Part shown: positions 20,800 to 29,970 of the stretch, one piece after another
How positions within the stretch are numbered: the first letter of the stretch is position 1
How the letters are laid out: every line of letters begins with the position of its first letter
Assembly: GCF_030013205.1 (NCBI RefSeq)
Contig: NZ_CP122648.1
Length of the DNA stretch: 64,000 nt
DNA from: Escherichia coli
GTDB taxonomy: Bacteria > Pseudomonadota > Gammaproteobacteria > Enterobacterales > Enterobacteriaceae
Reading direction: 5' to 3' (one strand)
Made by a program: the position numbers and the translations under genes
The notes under the pieces: generated by a model
Told to the model about the DNA's origin: nothing
The model's input: the letters and a program-made list of their open reading frames with translations, nothing else
The model's database searches: none

Positions 20800-21845
20800 T
20801 GAGCAGAAAAAATAAAAAAGTGCGCATGAGTTCACGCATTGATCTCGCTGATGCGCTCAGGAAAGAATCATCGCTCAGTGCATTCACATTTGATGGTCCT
20901 TATCGCCTGACCGGGCATGACCTGCTGGACAATATGTACTGTGCTGATAACGGGCGGTGGTATGAAACCCCGGTGGACTGGTACGGTCTGGCAAGAGCAG
21001 CCCGGCAAACGTCCTGGCATCAGTCTGCGCTTTACTTTAAGCGCAATGTATTACTCGGTTGCTACATCCCGCACCCGCTGCTTTCCCGGCAGGATTTCTC
21101 GGCGCTGGCGCTGGACTGGTTTGTGTTCGGTAACGCATTCCTTGAGCTTCGAAGCAATATGCTCGGCGAACCGCTTAAATTACGGCACGCACTGGCGAAA
21201 TACATGCGACGCGGAAGCGATCTTGAATCATGGTGGTATGTGCAGGATGGCAAGGACGCGTTCCAGTTTCGCCCTGGCAAAGTGTGCCACCTGATGAATC
21301 CGGACATTAACCAGGAAATTTACGGCATGCCGGAATATCTTGGCGCATTACTCTCGGCAAGCCTGTCTCATTCGGCGGACATGTTCAGAAAACTGTATTA
21401 CGACAATGGATCCCACGCCGGGTGCATTATCTACATCGGTGCAGCGCAGGTAAACCGCGAAAGCATGGACTCCCTGAAAGAAACGCTACAGGGTGCGCGT
21501 GGTGGTGGTGCGTTTAAAAACGTGCTCATTCATGCGCCCAACGGGGGCAAAGAGGGGGTGCAAATTTTGCCGTTCCAGCAGATCACCGCAAAGGATGAGT
21601 TCATGAATGTTAAGGCGGCATCCCGTGATGATGTGCTGGCTGCGCACCGCGTTCCGCCGCAACTGATGGGGGCGATGCCGGGTGAAAAAAGTGCGTTTGG
21701 TGATGTGGAGAAGGCCGCGCGGGTTTACGCAATTAACGAGCTGATGCCCGTCATGGAGGCCATGAAGCACATCAATGACTGGCTTGGCGAAGAGGTGATC
21801 CGCTTTAACCCTTACGCACTGTTAGACACCCAGCCCACATCCTGA
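20799..21845 (+). CDS. Portal protein (P2 gpQ-like)
   Basis: 348 aa immediately after the terminase gene (ATGA overlap); P2 portal is ~344 aa. Confidence 0.8.
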   Translation: MSRKNKKVRMSSRIDLADALRKESSLSAFTFDGPYRLTGHDLLDNMYCADNGRWYETPVDWYGLARAARQTSWHQSALYFKRNVLLGCYIPHPLLSRQDFSALALDWFVFGNAFLELRSNMLGEPLKLRHALAKYMRRGSDLESWWYVQDGKDAFQFRPGKVCHLMNPDINQEIYGMPEYLGALLSASLSHSADMFRKLYYDNGSHAGCIIYIGAAQVNRESMDSLKETLQGARGGGAFKNVLIHAPNGGKEGVQILPFQQITAKDEFMNVKAASRDDVLAAHRVPPQLMGAMPGEKSAFGDVEKAARVYAINELMPVMEAMKHINDWLGEEVIRFNPYALLDTQPTS

Positions 21846-21906: not shown

Positions 21907-22332
21907 TCCTGTATCAGTCAGATAATTTCACGACGCTTTCCTGCTTATTGCCATCATCGACGGTCAGACTCTTACGCAATCCCACCGCGTTGACTGCATG
22001 TTCTTCGACGCCTCAGTGCGATTTTGACGGCCTTACCTTTCACCCCATCAAATTAGAATCCCTCACGTCTTTTTCACACTCAGCGTGAGAAATACAGCCA
22101 TTCTGTTGTGTTGCTGCGACATCGTTCAGGGGATGCTATTTACCCCCTGAAACGCGGGCTGTTCCCCCGTCACCTGCGCGCAGAAAAAACGCGTTTTTTT
22201 GTGCACGTACGGATCCTTGACGGATCCAGCCACCACGCGGGCCGGAAGTACAAAAAGTCGTTCAAAAAAATTGTGCAAACTTGTGCACTATCGTGCAAAC
22301 AAAAAAAGCGCCTTATCGGCGCTTCAAAAGTA

Positions 22333-22602
22333 TCAATTGTTGCTGTGTATTAATCGCCAACCACGAACATATGCTTCATAGGCATCTCTGTGCCTTACAG
22401 TTCCAGCCTGGCTAAACGGAATGTTAGCTAAAACTAAATCATTCTGAGCCATAGCGCGTCCTTCAAGCGCATCTTTTATGCCTAGCTCAAAAGCACAGGC
22501 AGCGCATTTGTGCCGACCTTCTTGTCCTTGATATTCAGGGAGAGACAGAAATGTTGGATTATAACGATGAGGGTTCTTGCAAATACCTGTTTTAGCCCGC
22601 AC
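22333..22602 (-). CDS. Hypothetical small protein, Cys/His-containing
   Basis: 89-aa ORF between the cos region and parR; no clear family assignment from sequence. Confidence 0.4.
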   Translation of the reverse strand: MRAKTGICKNPHRYNPTFLSLPEYQGQEGRHKCAACAFELGIKDALEGRAMAQNDLVLANIPFSQAGTVRHRDAYEAYVRGWRLIHSNN

Positions 22603-22732
22603 TTTATTTACCTCATAGGAAAAATATGCGTGCCTTTACAGAGGTGCGTGTAAGCAATAAAATATACGACGCACATTTTGATTTACTTCGGAAGGCACGC
22701 ATATCAGGTTAAGTGAGTCCGACCGAGTTTTA

Positions 22733-22765: not shown

Positions 22766-22966
22766 CATGGACAATGCCGCGCAATTATCTTGTCGCTCAC
22801 AATGCGAACGATCTTACAAAAAGGCACATTACTGTCAAGATAATTGATCGTTTTAATCGATAGATAATAGACAATCTATTTGTTTAACAGATCGATTATT
22901 GAAGTAAGTGTGCCAAGTGGAATGATACTGTCTCTATAAACGTGAGCATTTTTCGCGCAGATGCTT

Positions 22967-23278
22967 TTACTCAGGAAATAACGCCCGGATATTCCCAGCC
23001 ATCTGGCTGGTTATCTTAGCCACTGGTGCAGACTGTGCTTCAAACTTTTTTGAGCTGATTTGTGTCACAGGTAACATCTCATCATCAGCCCATGCGGCCA
23101 GTCGGTAAGCCTCTGCCGGATTCGTCTTCAGAAGTGCCAGCCCGGCCAGAAAAGCCACGCGTTGGCCGCTTTTGCGGGCTTCTGGTGTAAGGCTGTCCAG
23201 CCAGGCGCATGCTTCTCCTTCGTTCTTGACGGCAGCTGGCTTCAGATAGAAACTTATCCGTCTGGTTGGTGTTGTCAT
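22967..23278 (-). CDS. parR: ParR-like centromere-binding adaptor
   Basis: 103 aa from the ATG at 23278, preceded by AGGAG 7 nt upstream and only 4 nt after the parM stop; resembles R1 ParR (RRISFYLKP...LDSLTPEARKSGQRVAFLAGLALL). The longer annotated ORF 22967..23413 overlaps parM and is rejected. Confidence 0.7.
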   Translation of the reverse strand: MTTPTRRISFYLKPAAVKNEGEACAWLDSLTPEARKSGQRVAFLAGLALLKTNPAEAYRLAAWADDEMLPVTQISSKKFEAQSAPVAKITSQMAGNIRALFPE

Positions 23279-23282
23279 TGGT

Positions 23283-24242
23283 TTACTCCTTGTCCATTGC
23301 GTACAGCCCATTAACCAGAGCAAACTGTGGCACCCCGTCCGCGATGAAAGTCGCATTAACTCCGCAGGCTTCGCGGATAGCGGGTGCCACAATCTCCGCC
23401 CCGCCACCGACAACCATCACCCGCCCGTAACCCGAAAAACCCGCCAGCGCGCGGATCACGCGTTGTTTCAGTGTTTCTTCCTTTTCACGAATAACCGCCA
23501 TCAGGCTGGCGTAATGCGCGTCATTGTGGATGTGCTGGCGCAGCCAGGCTTCATCATGGCGATGTTCGATAATGGTATTGGCGATGTGGTGACTGGTACG
23601 CATACCGTTAGTGGCCATCACCGACAGTACGGCATCGGCCATCAGGGAAACGCCTACGTGTGGATCGCAAAACACCTGGCTGATACCTGCCAGTTGTCCC
23701 TGAACCTTTGCCACATCCAGCGTGGTTCCGCCTAAATCCACAATCAGCAGGGATTCAAACGGACTCATGTCAGCCAGTGCTTTAAAGCCAGCCGGAATGG
23801 ATTCAGGCATAACCCGTACGTTACGGATAGTGAATGCTTCGCCGTTCTGGTACTCCACCGGGCGCATGACGTTCGCTTTTTTGCGGTTGATGTTGGCCAT
23901 GTCCGGCTGTGCGTTTGTGTCGAAATATTCGCTCAGTGGCAGGGTGACAACCACATCCACTTCCTGTGGTGTGATGCCTGATTTGACCAGCGCGTGATGA
24001 ATGGCAATGACATTCACATCGCTGTACTGGTATTGCGTGTCGGTCGTCTGGACAAAGCGATCGCTGACCGGATCAAAACCATAGCGCACGCCATCAAGCA
24101 TGTAGTTCGCGGGCTGCGTGCCACCGAACGGCGCAGACCATTCCGACTTGAAGCTGTTCGGGCTGATGGCGTTGCGGCGTTCGCCGTTCTCAGTCCATGC
24201 CAGCTTGATGTTGGTGGAGCCGTCATCGATACAAATTTTCAT
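23283..24242 (-). CDS. parM: ParM/StbA-family actin-like segregation ATPase
   Basis: 319 aa MKICIDDGSTNIKLAW...SPNSF...VMPESIPAG...LIVDLGGTTLD...VMVVGGGAE; close to plasmid R1 ParM along the whole length. Confidence 0.85.
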   Translation of the reverse strand: MKICIDDGSTNIKLAWTENGERRNAISPNSFKSEWSAPFGGTQPANYMLDGVRYGFDPVSDRFVQTTDTQYQYSDVNVIAIHHALVKSGITPQEVDVVVTLPLSEYFDTNAQPDMANINRKKANVMRPVEYQNGEAFTIRNVRVMPESIPAGFKALADMSPFESLLIVDLGGTTLDVAKVQGQLAGISQVFCDPHVGVSLMADAVLSVMATNGMRTSHHIANTIIEHRHDEAWLRQHIHNDAHYASLMAVIREKEETLKQRVIRALAGFSGYGRVMVVGGGAEIVAPAIREACGVNATFIADGVPQFALVNGLYAMDKE

Positions 24243-24274
24243 GTCGCTTTTCCTTATGTTGATTAATTAATCGC

Positions 24275-24382
24275 TTACGGGATTCTGAAATCCCGTTTTT
24301 GCCTGTTTTATGCGCGCTTCATATATCGCGGCGCGTTTTTTGCTCATTTACGGGATTTGTGAATCCCGTTTCTGTCTGTTTT
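24275..24382. promoter_or_regulatory. parC-like centromere/operator: two 35-bp direct repeats, each holding a 20-bp palindrome, flanking a putative promoter
   Basis: Repeat A 24275..24309 (ACGGGATTCTGAAATCCCGT) and repeat B 24348..24382 (ACGGGATTTGTGAATCCCGT), 73 bp apart, directly upstream of parM; repeat B overlaps the last codons of the A-like ORF. Confidence 0.6.
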
Positions 24383-27141
24383 TTGTTTCCACTGGTCAGG
24401 CCTCCCCGCAGCAGGTCTGCTTTGCGGCGGGCGCGTTCAGTGGTTTCACTGATTCTCTGTGCGTGCTCTGCGTCGCGGATGGCGCGCAGCATGTCAGAAA
24501 GCACGGTAACGGGTGTTTTCATGGTGTTCTGGTCCTGCTGAAGTGTGGATGCCAGGCGTGCGGCGGCTTCGGGGTCTGATGCCCCCAGCTGTTCCAGATA
24601 GCTGGCGACCGGGTTATGGCGGATCTCCGTGCTGCTTACGCCGTGGTTACGGCTCAGGCGCTGCCAGAGCTGCGTGATCCGGCTGTCCGGTCGGGTATCC
24701 GGTTTGCGTACAATTTCAAATCCCTGCGGTGCAATGATGCTGCCGTCGACGTACAGACTGCCGCCCCGTAACAGGTGCTGCATCTGCTGTTCACCGATAT
24801 GCAGGCCGAGAGATTCAGCAGACTCCCGCCATTCTTTAGCGAGTAACTCGTGGTTATCAGGCAAAGGCCGTGGCTGTTTGCGGCTCTGTGTCCAGTTCTG
24901 CATTTCATCACTGCTGTTTTTTGCCTGTTTGTCACGCAGCGAACGCATCAGCGCCCGGCGTTCGTGCCGTTTCAGTGAGCGCATCCATTCATTCACGTCA
25001 ACGCCGTCAGGAAGCTGCGGCCACGGTGCTGGCCGTTCTTCCGGCTGTTCTGTCCCGTTGTTGTCCGTTTCCTGTACACGGGGACAGTTATTGCCACGAG
25101 TCCAAGGGGCGGCAGGGCCGCCCTGAAGGTCAAAACCATTTTCGCGGGCGCTGTCTTCCGCTTCCGGTTTACGTCTTACCAGCTTCCAGTTATCCGGATG
25201 TGTGCACACACGGGAAGACTCCCCGATGAGCGGTGACCAGATCCCGTAAATCTGTACGCTCTGTTCGCCGTAATCGTTCAGCTCATCTGCGAGGTCGTAG
25301 GCGGTGCGAATCAGGTAGTCTTTGCGTGGAACAAGTACGCCGCCCTGTTTTTCAATGTAGGAGGCAAAACACCCGGCATCAGCGGCAGCGAGCACTGCAT
25401 CCATTGCGTCATCCTTCAGTCGTTGCGGGCCTTCCGGGTTGCGTGCCATCTGGCTGGCAAGGCGGCGCAGTTCACGCCACACCTGACGGGAGGGGATGCC
25501 AAAGAACTGGAACTGGCGGACCCGGTGAAGGCGCGCCCAGCCGATGGCGCGCTCCACGCTCTCGGCCATTGATTTTCCGGTTTCGTGGTCAACGCGTGGC
25601 TTGCCCGTTTTCGGGTCGATACCATCCACGGCGCGGCTGTCCAGGTTCTTTCCGATGTAGGTGGCGATGTAGCTGGTTGGCGTGCCTTTTGAGCCGTCGA
25701 CGTACTCCGCCTTAAAACGCGGAGTTATGTCATCGCCCAGCTCGTGGCGGTCTTCCTGAATGGCAATATCGCAGACGTGGGACACGATGGTTTCAATCTC
25801 GTCCGGATGTGCAAAGACCATCATATGCCAGTGCACAGTGCCGTCATGGTGAGGCTCCACCGTGCGGATGCCATACCAGCGAAGACCGTCGCGGTTCAGT
25901 TTTTTGCGGACCGCCGCAAAAAACGTGTTAACCAGGTAATCGCTGGAGTCGCGCATGGTGGCCCCGTTCCATTTGGGATTCGGATGACCGTTCTCTGTTG
26001 TGGCGTGGTATTTTGACGGGCAGGTGACAGTCAGAAACACCGCTCTGTCGCCACGGGCTTCGGCCAGAAGTTCCAGTCCCTTCATGGTGGCCATCATTTC
26101 TGCCTTACGGTGAACCGGGTTACTTACTCCCGCGTAATACACCGTCTCGAGATCAATCGTGAACCCGTCTTCATTTTCCAGCATGAAACTTTTCAGGAAA
26201 TCGCGTGTTTTCTCGCGCTGTGCGCGAAACTCGCTTAACGCGTCCTGGCTCAGATAGGGTGATGTTTTTCTGGAAACCAGACAGGCGGCGCGGAGTTGTT
26301 CTTCTCTCCACTCGCAACGTAACAGCCACAGTTTGCGTTTCCACCATTCCGCACAGGTCAGGCGAAGGATTGCGCCCGGCAGCAGCTCCGTGTCCGGTTC
26401 GTTCCTCCGGTCTTTGTCTGTTGTCAGTGCGTCATAATGTGGAGGCATGGCGTGCAGGTGTAACGCCATGCGGGCCAGCATCTGATACGCCTTCAGCGTT
26501 ACATCCATGGTCAGTTCGCCATCAGTAGCGCCAAAGCCATCGCAGAGTTTTTCGAAGGTGCTGCTGAACATCGCCGCCGTCATGGTGGCCAGCGTCTGTA
26601 TCTGGTGTTTGTTGAGCTGCGGCAGGTAAAGCAAATCGTCCAGGCGTTCGCGTCCGGCAAGGGAGCGATAACCCGGTGTCAGCCAGCGGTGATCGGTGCG
26701 GTCCAGACGTTCGAATATTTTGCGCAGGGTTCCGCGCGCGTAGCGTTCCGCCTGCCAGCTCTTTTTGCCTTTCTGACGATCGGCTTCCTGCTTCTTGCGC
26801 AGGAAGGAGAGGTGGCGAATAAGCGGATCGCGCAGATAGGACGGCAGCAGGCGCAGCGAGGCCATGGCTTCATCCACCGCGCCGCGTGCCTGTTTTCTGG
26901 CGTCTCCTGCCAGTGTGATGGTTTTGTCCTGTTTTTCCTGTGCGTCCAGGCTTTTATTAATCAGGTTGCCCAGCGGCGTGGCGGAGAACGCCGCATCAGC
27001 CATTTCCTGGCGGCGCTCGTTCTCTACCCGGTAGGCATCCAGCCAGGAGGAAAGCGCGGATTCAGGAGCGGAGATCCCCGTTCCTTCACGCCCCACTGCG
27101 TGGCGCGGTTGTTGCCAGTCCCTGATGTACTCTGCCGTCAT
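24319..27141 (-). CDS. Replication initiation endonuclease (P2 gpA-like, rolling-circle)
   Basis: 940-aa ORF containing SKYH and VEPHHDGTVHWHMMVF, matching the P2 A signature (VEPHHDGTPHWHMMLF) and the catalytic Tyr region; longer than P2 A (761 aa), so start and C-terminal extent are uncertain. Confidence 0.85.
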   Translation of the reverse strand: MTAEYIRDWQQPRHAVGREGTGISAPESALSSWLDAYRVENERRQEMADAAFSATPLGNLINKSLDAQEKQDKTITLAGDARKQARGAVDEAMASLRLLPSYLRDPLIRHLSFLRKKQEADRQKGKKSWQAERYARGTLRKIFERLDRTDHRWLTPGYRSLAGRERLDDLLYLPQLNKHQIQTLATMTAAMFSSTFEKLCDGFGATDGELTMDVTLKAYQMLARMALHLHAMPPHYDALTTDKDRRNEPDTELLPGAILRLTCAEWWKRKLWLLRCEWREEQLRAACLVSRKTSPYLSQDALSEFRAQREKTRDFLKSFMLENEDGFTIDLETVYYAGVSNPVHRKAEMMATMKGLELLAEARGDRAVFLTVTCPSKYHATTENGHPNPKWNGATMRDSSDYLVNTFFAAVRKKLNRDGLRWYGIRTVEPHHDGTVHWHMMVFAHPDEIETIVSHVCDIAIQEDRHELGDDITPRFKAEYVDGSKGTPTSYIATYIGKNLDSRAVDGIDPKTGKPRVDHETGKSMAESVERAIGWARLHRVRQFQFFGIPSRQVWRELRRLASQMARNPEGPQRLKDDAMDAVLAAADAGCFASYIEKQGGVLVPRKDYLIRTAYDLADELNDYGEQSVQIYGIWSPLIGESSRVCTHPDNWKLVRRKPEAEDSARENGFDLQGGPAAPWTRGNNCPRVQETDNNGTEQPEERPAPWPQLPDGVDVNEWMRSLKRHERRALMRSLRDKQAKNSSDEMQNWTQSRKQPRPLPDNHELLAKEWRESAESLGLHIGEQQMQHLLRGGSLYVDGSIIAPQGFEIVRKPDTRPDSRITQLWQRLSRNHGVSSTEIRHNPVASYLEQLGASDPEAAARLASTLQQDQNTMKTPVTVLSDMLRAIRDAEHAQRISETTERARRKADLLRGGLTSGNKKQTETGFTNPVNEQKTRRDI

Positions 27142-29628: not shown

Positions 29629-29970
29629 TTATAAATCAGCCTGTTTAATAAAACTCTGTCCACGCAGCAGACGATCAACCGTGCGAAGCGCTTCGTATAA
29701 TGTGAAATCCTGCCCAAACTGATTGTCGCCGCTGCTCAGAGCAAAAATGCGGTTTCCGGTAAACGGATTGCGCGGGCATTTGTGGACCACGATTCCAGCT
29801 TTCTCAATCAGCCAGGCATGCTCGCCGATTTGTTTTACTGGGTAGCCATCCGGCGTTGCGTGTGTATCACTCAGGCTGTAGCGGATGTTGCTGCGTGATG
29901 CACTGGTAGCAAAACGGTTAGCGTGGCGTTCTGCACCATTGCGAAAGCGTGAATTACGTTGCTGTTTCAT
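29629..29970 (-). CDS. Early-region hypothetical protein
   Basis: 113-aa ORF. Confidence 0.45.
   Translation of the reverse strand: MKQQRNSRFRNGAERHANRFATSASRSNIRYSLSDTHATPDGYPVKQIGEHAWLIEKAGIVVHKCPRNPFTGNRIFALSSGDNQFGQDFTLYEALRTVDRLLRGQSFIKQADL

Follow-up and report, generated by a model that had tools for sequence, protein, structure and literature searches.

Replication gene A of a P88-like prophage reads through a candidate partition-site arm, probably as a by-product of cargo joining within the gene

Here we report that, in a P88-like prophage (Xuanwuvirus, P2 family) of an Escherichia coli chromosome, the open reading frame of replication gene A runs through the distal of two repeats that most likely form the arms of parC, the centromere and operator of an adjoining parMR cassette. 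We put the probability at roughly 0.8 that the repeats are parC arms and that the overlap is a passive by-product of swappable cargo joining the phage within A, not a designed coupling. The window, meaning the whole 64,000-nucleotide stretch of DNA that was analysed, is 100% identical to E. coli chromosome sequence, and its prophage carries the cassette between A and the cos/portal end. Rousset et al. (2022, PMC9122126) have already described the gpA-gpQ (old/tin, 'TO') cargo hotspot of P2-like phages and noted that, among those of E. coli, roughly one in four has a putative partition system at this place. With regard to these published results the overlap is an ordinary finding, and its value is mainly practical. 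The features concerned are given below in window coordinates.

22967..23278, minus strand: parR, StbB-family adaptor, 103 aa (Pfam PF10784, E=1e-23; alignment with plasmid ParR)
23283..24242, minus strand: parM, actin-like partition ATPase, 319 aa (Pfam StbA_N, E=2e-82; ParM C-terminal domain, E=1e-68)
24261..24272, unstranded: perfect palindrome of 12 bp, GATTAATTAATC, located between arm A and the ribosome-binding site of parM
24275..24312, unstranded: repeat unit A, proximal parC-like arm, with palindrome ACGGGATTCTGAAATCCCGT at 24277-24296
24320..24347, minus strand: core between the arms, with putative weak sigma-70-like hexamers ATGAGC and TATATG around a 16-nt spacer
24348..24385, unstranded: repeat unit B, distal parC-like arm, with palindrome ACGGGATTTGTGAATCCCGT at 24350-24369
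24319..27141, minus strand: gpA-family rolling-circle replication initiator ORF, 940 aa, TGA stop at 24321-24319 (PF05840; P88 CDS)
24409..27141, minus strand: cargo-independent part of A, aa 1-911, ending ...RRKADLL, common to P88-like phages (alignments, megablast)
24322..24408, minus strand: junction- or cassette-specific tail of A, aa 912-940, RGGLTSGNKKQTETGFTNPVNEQKTRRDI, variable and missing in parMR-free relatives
25084..25113, minus strand: homologue of the P2/186 ori nick site (P2/186 alignment), near codon 680 of A, some 0.7 kb away from the parC-like arms

By its sequence the cassette is an R1-type ParM-ParR pair with a putative partition role. ParM matches the R1 ParM structure 1mwk over residues 2-316 (phmmer against PDB, E=9e-93, ~46% identity), as expected of an actin-like ATPase, and is directly followed by the small ParR/StbB adaptor that marks type II partition systems. 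ParR aligns with R1-type and other plasmid ParRs, with the N-terminal strand and the C-terminal NI..LFP motif conserved; a ParR sequence search of PDB matched no solved structure. parM has a pN/pS of 0.07, and a scan of species-representative genomes with ParM returned 3 loci only, all near-identical. The ParMR lineage occurs in roughly one in four complete E. coli genomes. A 26-nt direct repeat, 73% identical, lies near both ends of the cassette (23002-23027 and 24371-24396) and was judged a chance match.

Directly upstream of parM lie the two 38-nt direct repeats, 82% identical and 73 bp apart, a distance of about 7 helical turns; the first-pass annotation had located the second of them at 24348..24382, and this corresponds to the distal unit. 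Each contains a perfect 8-4-8 palindrome, ACGGGATT-N4-AATCCCGT, which has 2 perfect matches in the window, where shuffles predict 0.25 even with 3 mismatches allowed. Across 75 distinct variants the palindrome core GGGA/TCCC is nearly invariant and the loops vary, and positions 24270-24263 of the 12-bp palindrome are invariant. The 73-bp spacing is kept in about 85 loci, among them a Hafnia phage with a 75% identical ParR, in which repeat B is conserved as well. ParR variants down to 54% identity carry the same palindromes, because their N-terminal DNA-binding strand TRRISFYLKP is conserved, so that no covariation between ParR and palindromes speaks for the assignment (for the 63%-identical variant P0031 the contig begins within parM). 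On an IncL/M plasmid, parM is preceded by three repeat units at a spacing of 72-73 bp, and R1-type plasmids have two A-rich iteron blocks around a core at the matching place.

It is most likely, on these grounds, that the two repeats are the arms of parC, with palindromes presumably bound by ParR and perhaps a weak par promoter between them. The stop codon of A overlaps the -10-like hexamer in this core, and the equivalent of TATATG in the Hafnia phage is TATAAG; a consensus scan found no promoter between the arms at 9 or more of 12 matches, so the hexamers would be weak as a promoter.

We regard it as unlikely that the palindromes are something other than ParR sites, either tandem intrinsic terminators on the + strand, stopping transcription antisense to parM and A, or hairpins in the sense-strand mRNA. 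Both do look terminator-like on the + strand in a consensus scan, having an 8-bp stem and behind it a T-rich run that is kept in the Hafnia phage; the predicted hairpins reach -10.2 and -12 kcal/mol (z-scores -2.7 to -5.3), and a promoter-like + strand site at 22635-22663 is directed toward them. The hairpin and U-run of an intrinsic terminator are thus present, but not its placement at the end of a transcription unit: the nearest + strand gene is the portal gene, ending at 21845, the 2.4 kb upstream contain no credible + strand gene, and a + strand transcript would have to traverse 1.3 kb antisense to parR and parM. Moreover, promoter-like sites occur at chance level, the sense-strand hairpins have no U-run behind them, pairing is lost on one strand or the other among stem variants without a consistent pattern, and the invariant 73-bp spacing suits a protein-DNA complex better than a pair of terminators. 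An Rfam scan of 22800-25300 gave no match. To weigh a conserved RNA hairpin as a candidate, Watson-Crick and G.U pairs were counted for each strand over some 90 loci; pairing was kept on the + strand in 5 of 6 arm B transitions and split 2 against 2 in arm A, counts that are not significant and so lend no support to such a hairpin.

If the repeats are taken as parC arms, the question becomes how gene A came to overlap one of them. A is clearly a member of the gpA family. Its Phage_GPA domain (Pfam PF05840, E=2e-129) spans aa 179-503 and covers the full profile, 1-321; in BLASTP its aa 77-744 align with residues 42-687 of P2 A at 31% identity, and its HWHMM and YIATYIGKN motifs align with HWHMM and YIAKYISKN of P2, supplying the HUH-type metal motif and the paired catalytic tyrosines. 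The ori homologue at 25084-25113 can be aligned both to the 186 ori and to the P2 sequence surrounding the annotated nick at 29892, with CAATAACTGT and its flanking sequence in common, and is the most conserved 30-nt bin of A among the 75 variants; the predicted nick site thus places the origin inside the A coding sequence, as for the gpA initiator of P2. NCBIfam had no model for A, for its C-terminal part, for ParR or for the 155-aa ORF described below.

The first-pass annotation described a 940-aa ORF that ends at 24319 and reads through the distal palindrome, against 761 aa in P2 A, and these features are as it described them. It also offered insertion of the cassette as the source of some 180 extra codons, which is not borne out. 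The excess over P2 A (179 aa; 246 aa over the 694 aa of 186 A) divides into 35 aa at the N-terminus, 22 in the core and 122 at the C-terminus, and just 29 of these last are cassette-specific, about 93 occurring also in parMR-free relatives, whose A proteins still reach 921-927 aa. Homologues of gpA range from 440 to 953 aa, with a common core that stops near aa 690. Beyond it, the extension at aa 741-911 is under purifying selection (pN/pS 0.24-0.39), and aa 775-860 recur in distant gpA homologues; the C-terminus of P2 A matches the extension only weakly (E=0.049), and a multiple alignment suggests that the domain at aa 775-860 is represented in P2 A by its first half.

What changes at the end of A is the cargo. 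In the parMR-free relatives ECN24, N58 and PC6 the A protein agrees with that of the window up to the LL motif (...LL911), and megablast homology to the window stops at 24419-24435. Their A proteins, of 927, 921 and 927 aa, are followed by IetA/IetS in ECN24 and N58 and by three unknown genes in PC6, at the point where the window and P88 carry parMR; cargo in these otherwise similar phages is thus variable and mutually exclusive, as at the gpA-gpQ hotspot. The RGGLTSGNKKQTETG... tail is absent from ECN24, N58 and PC6. At least 6 different tail types follow the common LL in the databases, where a word-indexed search for proteins matching the A C-terminus gave mainly fragments and was informative only for tail variants. 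Of the 1371 E. coli genomes with this A 3' end, 1276 keep the par junction, and at a second type of junction (L009, L038) homology to the window begins only at ~24384, the edge of repeat B.

The left edge of the swappable cargo therefore falls within the 3' end of A, directly past codon 911; with the boundary inside its 3' end, A has no fixed native stop and takes its last codons from each cargo. The suggestion that the cassette created a new A C-terminus is in this sense upheld, the relatives sharing A only to Leu911 and then carrying other short tails. The same annotation had named a contrary outcome, in which the extra length is N-terminal mis-annotation and the conserved C-terminus ends upstream of the repeat: this is half borne out, since the conserved part does end upstream of repeat B but the extra length is not a mis-annotated N-terminus.

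Past the junction, the A frame enters the A-rich, stop-free arm B, runs on for 29 more codons and ends at the first in-frame TGA between the arms. Codons 919-932 cover repeat unit B, and codons 925-931 its palindrome. Over arm B (24396-24351) the coding strand contains 4 T among 46 nt, and none of its three frames has a stop there, so that any ORF entering the arm would overlap it passively. Even for random codons an open run of 29 has a probability of about 0.25, and the overlap does not go beyond chance.

The behaviour of the tail in nature bears on whether the overlap does anything. Its stop differs in position between lineages, lying before palindrome B in L075, in the loop of the palindrome in the Hafnia phage and after it in others, and in L087 the two arms are fused by a 73-bp deletion. 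In 9 of 80 loci a frameshift, a truncation or an extension alters the tail, and a -1 variant is found in sequence clusters with 40 and 16 members; indels at the A-run may in some cases be sequencing errors in draft assemblies. In L009 and L038 an unrelated 155-aa ORF, ending ...KQTETGLTNPVNEQKTRHKT, reads through arm B in the same frame as A. The pN/pS of the tail is 0.57-0.72, against 0.24-0.39 directly upstream (frequency-weighted, about 0.8 against 0.2), values confounded by DNA-level constraint from parC. Residues 918-940 are predicted to be disordered, with pLDDT <50 and no secondary structure in a model built on a 10-sequence alignment with no homologues spanning the tail. We infer that the par-linked tail belongs to the cassette, is dispensable to A and has no function of its own; weak selection may nevertheless act on it, the majority tail being in frame with the same TGA, 76 nt before parM, in 71 of 80 loci and its pN/pS being below 1.

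These last two observations are also what a functional coupling would predict, in which the 29-aa tail serves A as a functional C-terminal module, or ParR sitting on arm B governs whether A is expressed to its end and so ties the start of replication to partition. The entry of the unrelated L009 ORF in A's own frame and the closeness of the ori homologue, merely ~0.7 kb away, point the same way. We nevertheless think such a coupling quite improbable: in natural variants the stop may precede palindrome B, fall within it or come shortly after it, or the frame passes both arms, the -1 variant is common, parMR-free phages lack the tail, the tail is predicted to be disordered, and a shared frame in L009 is a 1-in-3 event. 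The physical coupling of the A 3' end to the partition site proposed by the first-pass annotation stands at the DNA level, and no sign of function was found in it. Less probable still, in our estimate, is a mutual influence between the passage of transcription or translation of A through arm B and the binding of ParR to that arm. In that case read-through from the early operon could, for example, be stopped by a ParR-parC complex just where A ends, the amount of full-length initiator or the level of parMR message would be tied to partition-complex assembly beside the phage origin, and the interplay of arm B and ParR might support an episomal phase of the phage.

Little credence attaches to a programmed frameshift signal, made up of the A-run (AAC AAA AAA CAG) and the arm B hairpin ~10 nt further on, that would give A two C-termini. 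Natural +1 and -1 indels do gather at the A-run, and a stable hairpin follows it; yet, read in the A frame, the run gives no canonical X XXY YYZ heptamer, the alternative products would differ only in short, unconserved, disordered tails, and L075 and the Hafnia phage have other sequences at this position. We give almost no weight to a mis-annotated A with a later start or earlier stop and a true size near that of P2 A, as the first-pass annotation had allowed and the excess length might suggest, given that WQQPRHAVGRE at aa 9-19 (W-x-PR-x-AVGRE) aligns with P2 aa 29-39, the upstream ORF stops 6 nt ahead of the A ATG, no in-frame stop precedes 24321, the C-terminal extension is under purifying selection and its aa 775-860 recur in distant gpA homologues as set out above, and P88 and Citrobacter phage Shae_phiSM have the same 2823-nt CDS annotated.

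A passive overlap at a cargo junction has consequences for annotation. The C-terminus of P88-like gpA being set by the adjoining cargo, length differences among gpA annotations should not be read as functional, and pipelines that delimit the gpA-gpQ hotspot by gene boundaries would place its left edge ~90-115 bp too far out. The repeats also offer a definite centromere candidate for this ParMR lineage, made up of two palindromic arms at a spacing of 73 bp.

Compared with known systems, the window A has in common with P2 gene A (gpA) the Phage_GPA domain, the HWHMM and Y-x3-Y motifs and the internal ori nick-site sequence; it differs in an inserted N-terminal segment, in the domain at aa ~775-860 that appears only half present in P2, and, beyond P2 A, in a lineage-specific helical segment (aa 861-911) followed by the cargo-dependent tail. 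The ParMRC (par/stb) type II systems of R1/NR1 resemble the cassette in their full-length ParM match, the PF10784 ParR downstream and the two repeat blocks upstream. R1 parC consists of ten 11-bp direct iterons. These A-rich iterons (~11 bp) are arranged in two sets, whereas the window has two 38-nt units each with a 20-bp palindrome; its ParR, at 103 aa, is shorter than the R1-type plasmid ParR (116 aa, 25% identity) and than two further plasmid ParRs used for comparison (139-146 aa). Unlike the R1/NR1 system, the window ParMR resides in an integrating phage and has its distal arm overlapped by the upstream ORF. Escherichia phage P88 (NC_026014), the type of Xuanwuvirus, has the same gene order and 97% DNA identity to the window over parR-parM-A, with an A CDS likewise of 2823 nt and a gap to parM likewise of 76 nt; it differs downstream of parR, homology starting at window position 22967, and the paper describing it does not discuss the par genes. 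The position of the cassette, from A to the portal/cos end, matches the gpA-gpQ hotspot (PMC9122126), where relatives carry alternative cargo that includes the known defence system IetAS; the published study took the cargo to be the genes between gpA and gpQ, whereas the boundary mapped here lies ~90-115 bp inside the annotated gpA ORF.

The window matches an E. coli chromosome at 100% identity. Its parR-parM-A segment shares 97% identity with P88, a P2-family phage (Peduoviridae) and the type of Xuanwuvirus, in which gene order is unchanged and the 2823-nt coding sequence is likewise present, annotated as 'replication endonuclease'. Since the terminase and portal genes lie on the left, the par genes fill the slot that has gene A on one side and the cos/portal end on the other; P2 has old and tin there. 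This slot is a cargo hotspot described by Rousset et al. 2022 (PMC9122126), who noted a putative plasmid partition system at this position in about one quarter of E. coli P2-like phages. In a complete-genome collection, the exact A-parC-parM junction was found in 1276 of 5426 E. coli genomes. P88-like copies are almost all chromosomal (1530 of 1532 places). As an exception, a whole phage genome of this type, comprising the integrase, Cox, A, and parMR along with the structural genes, is entered as a 'plasmid' in one complete E. coli assembly (NZ_CP148288.1, our locus L103; circular, 34,461 bp).

Features of the A-par region of the window
27141 to 24319, minus strand: A ORF, 940 aa, TGA stop at 24321-24319; Pfam Phage_GPA at aa 179-503 (E=2e-129)
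24348-24385 (repeat B, distal) and 24275-24312 (repeat A, proximal): 38-nt direct repeats, 73 bp apart, one on each side of the A stop and both ahead of the parM start
24242-23283, minus strand: parM, 319 aa, two Pfam ParM domains
23278-22967, minus strand: parR ORF, 103 aa, Pfam StbB/ParR family PF10784
19048-21845, plus strand: terminase and portal genes, left of the par genes

The ParM protein matches solved structures of R1 ParM (E=9e-93). Each 38-nt repeat encloses a perfect palindrome, ACGGGATT-N4-AATCCCGT, for which shuffled sequence gives an expectation of 0.25 matches even with 3 mismatches tolerated. The first-pass annotation described the 940-aa A ORF as reading through the distal repeat, and this is correct, codons 919-932 covering the repeat. 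Downstream of parR lie an 89-aa minus-strand ORF (22333-22602) and a strong terminator-like hairpin (22325-22305); the region 22305-22602 is unlike P88, suggesting that the parR-cos interval holds a second variable segment.

The extra length of A, about 180 codons over the 761 aa of P2 A, does not come from a wrongly placed start, as W-x-PR-x-AVGRE, an N-terminal motif at aa 9-19, has its aligned counterpart at P2 aa 29-39 and the upstream ORF stops 6 nt before the start codon. BLASTP aligned A aa 77-744 to P2 A aa 42-687, and the 179 surplus residues divide into +35 in the N-terminal region, +22 in the core, and +122 beyond the aligned core. The gpA homologues among 1.84 billion representative proteins number 2509 and range from 440 to 953 aa, so that the length of P2 A is not the family norm; their shared core stops near aa 690, and a few extend to aa 831-860, terminating approximately 8-14 residues later. 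In a multiple alignment, a C-terminal domain at aa ~775-860 is common to distant homologues, and a helical segment at aa 861-911 is restricted to P88-like and Hafnia lineages. Polymorphism among 75 distinct relatives indicates purifying selection on aa 741-911 (pN/pS 0.24-0.39). Among relatives, the 3' half of A is best conserved in the 30-nt bin 25083-25112, where the counterpart of the P2 ori nick-site sequence lies (25084-25113).

The par junction is absent in roughly 7% of E. coli genomes having this A 3' end, and in these genomes megablast homology to the window ends at 24419 or 24435. In the parMR-free relatives ECN24 and N58, A is 927 aa long and is followed by IetA (AAA ATPase) and IetS (S8 peptidase), a known anti-phage defence pair (L005:407-3777 and L007:395-3765, respectively); in a third, PC6, it is 921 aa long and is followed by three convergent genes of no known function. 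All three proteins agree with the window A through ...A(R/H)(R/H/K)K(A/I)xLL, past which they read QDKGNSEKKK or HRTR versus RGGLTSGNKKQTETGFTNPVNEQKTRRDI in the window, and database fragments supply three more tails after the same LL (QKRGKQHFSNQNDDEKKQLQSWICLFHHEG, QSWLNNRNKE, and QG). This places the end of the conserved A protein at Leu911 (24409), upstream of repeat B, and only 29 A codons (24408-24322) depend on the par cassette. The earlier interpretation thus holds in part: the cassette does give A a new end after Leu911, but one of only 29 codons.

This tail is part of the cassette rather than of A. Two loci, L009 and L038, have an A variant of 871 aa with a diverged C-terminal domain, followed by a separate 155-aa ORF (L009:4353-4820) with a zinc-ribbon-like CxxC...CxxC motif and no match in the Pfam-independent libraries NCBIfam and PADLOC. 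DNA homology to the window starts only at ~24384, the outer edge of repeat B, and the 155-aa ORF, which is unrelated to A, crosses that repeat in the same frame, ending in ...KQTETGLTNPVNEQKTRHKT; arm B therefore moves with parM and parR. Whatever ORF precedes arm B is translated through it because the arm is stop-free by composition: T accounts for 4 of the 46 nt of the coding strand at 24396-24351, with zero stop codons across three frames, all of which close only within 24350-24319.

At the protein level the tail lacks conservation. We compared 80 viral-contig and reference loci that have the standard junction; 71 use the same TGA, 76 nt ahead of parM, with numerous replacements in the tail (F/L/S, V/A/I, RRDI/RSDI/CRDI/RHKT/RREI). 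The other nine have differing A ends, including -1 or +1 shifts at an A-run, a frame that reads through both arms (L015), a stop ahead of palindrome B (L075, ...LISENKK*), and, in IMG/VR contig L087, a natural 73-bp deletion merging repeats B and A into one palindrome (region equivalent to 24275-24385), with A ending ...KTGFKNPVTD*, 24 nt ahead of parM. At the A-run, AAACAAAAAAC (24379-24388), relatives show recurrent single-base indels that put the A tail in either of the alternative frames; since two database clusters, of 40 and 16 sequences, contain the -1 form, it is not just sequencing error. In a Hafnia phage (ParR 75% identical), A is 913 aa long, with its TGA within the loop of palindrome B. 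Frequency-weighted pN/pS falls from ~0.8 in the tail to ~0.2 immediately before it; parM has 0.07. Residues 741-940 were modelled with AlphaFold from a shallow alignment: the model is confident at aa 761-815 and has a long helix at aa 877-916, and for aa 918-940 it gives pLDDT <50 and no secondary structure.

We propose that cargo exchange at the gpA-gpQ hotspot uses A homology on one flank. This homology stops approximately 90-115 bp short of the annotated A stop, so that each cargo supplies its own ORF end; with the par cassette, the A frame passes through stop-free arm B. As there is no sense-strand terminator between them, early-operon transcription probably continues from A into parM and parR, and ParR on both arms would build a partition complex, with the ori homologue (25084-25113) ~0.7 kb away. 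We infer transcription, ParR binding, and any consequence for phage biology. The overlap of A with repeat B is an ordinary junction effect, in a hotspot already described and a phage type already sequenced; the placing of the hotspot boundary inside gpA is modestly new.

Position and conservation point to the repeats as a candidate parC. They lie immediately upstream of parM, their GGGA/TCCC cores are near-invariant with variable loops and outer bases (75 variants), and they stay 73 bp (about seven helical turns) apart in ~85 loci and the Hafnia phage. The main alternative is that the palindromes are intrinsic terminators on the plus strand, antisense to A and parM: a T-rich run follows each on that strand (24277-24312 and 24350-24385) with terminator-like scores, and a promoter-like plus-strand site at 22635-22663 is directed at them. 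However, we found no plus-strand transcription unit to be terminated, stem variants show inconsistent strand preference, and Rfam gave zero matches. Against the parC reading, a consensus scan found no consensus promoter between the arms, only weak hexamers, and a -10-like hexamer there is overlapped by the A stop codon.

The N-terminal strand TRRISFYLKP is identical across ParR variants, leaving no change there to compare with the palindromes. Among these prophages, ParR (22967-23278; homologues P0001-P0084) falls to 54% identity versus 99-100% for ParM, retaining the N-terminal ~50 aa and C-terminal NIRALFPE with a swapped middle linker; several DNA matches start only at 23132 or 23224, within parR. 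Arm A and the parM ribosome-binding site flank a perfect 12-bp palindrome, GATTAATTAATC (24261-24272), whose centre is invariant in the 75 variants; it could serve as a second operator or belong to a promoter. A prophage remnant in E. coli EC7518 (L008) keeps parM and parR intact and has lost gene A and both palindromes; its junction is at window ~24272, where homology restarts at the TTAATTAATC motif.

The palindromic parC candidate belongs to a known kind of system. In favour of the assignment, R1-type plasmids have, in the same place, two A-rich iteron blocks around a core; against it, the layout here is unlike the direct iterons of R1. Also in favour, IncL/M plasmid pSL264 (ParM 52% identical) carries three repeat units of ~25-30 nt upstream of parM, 72 and 73 bp apart (L091:1308-1478), the same spacing as the phage arms.
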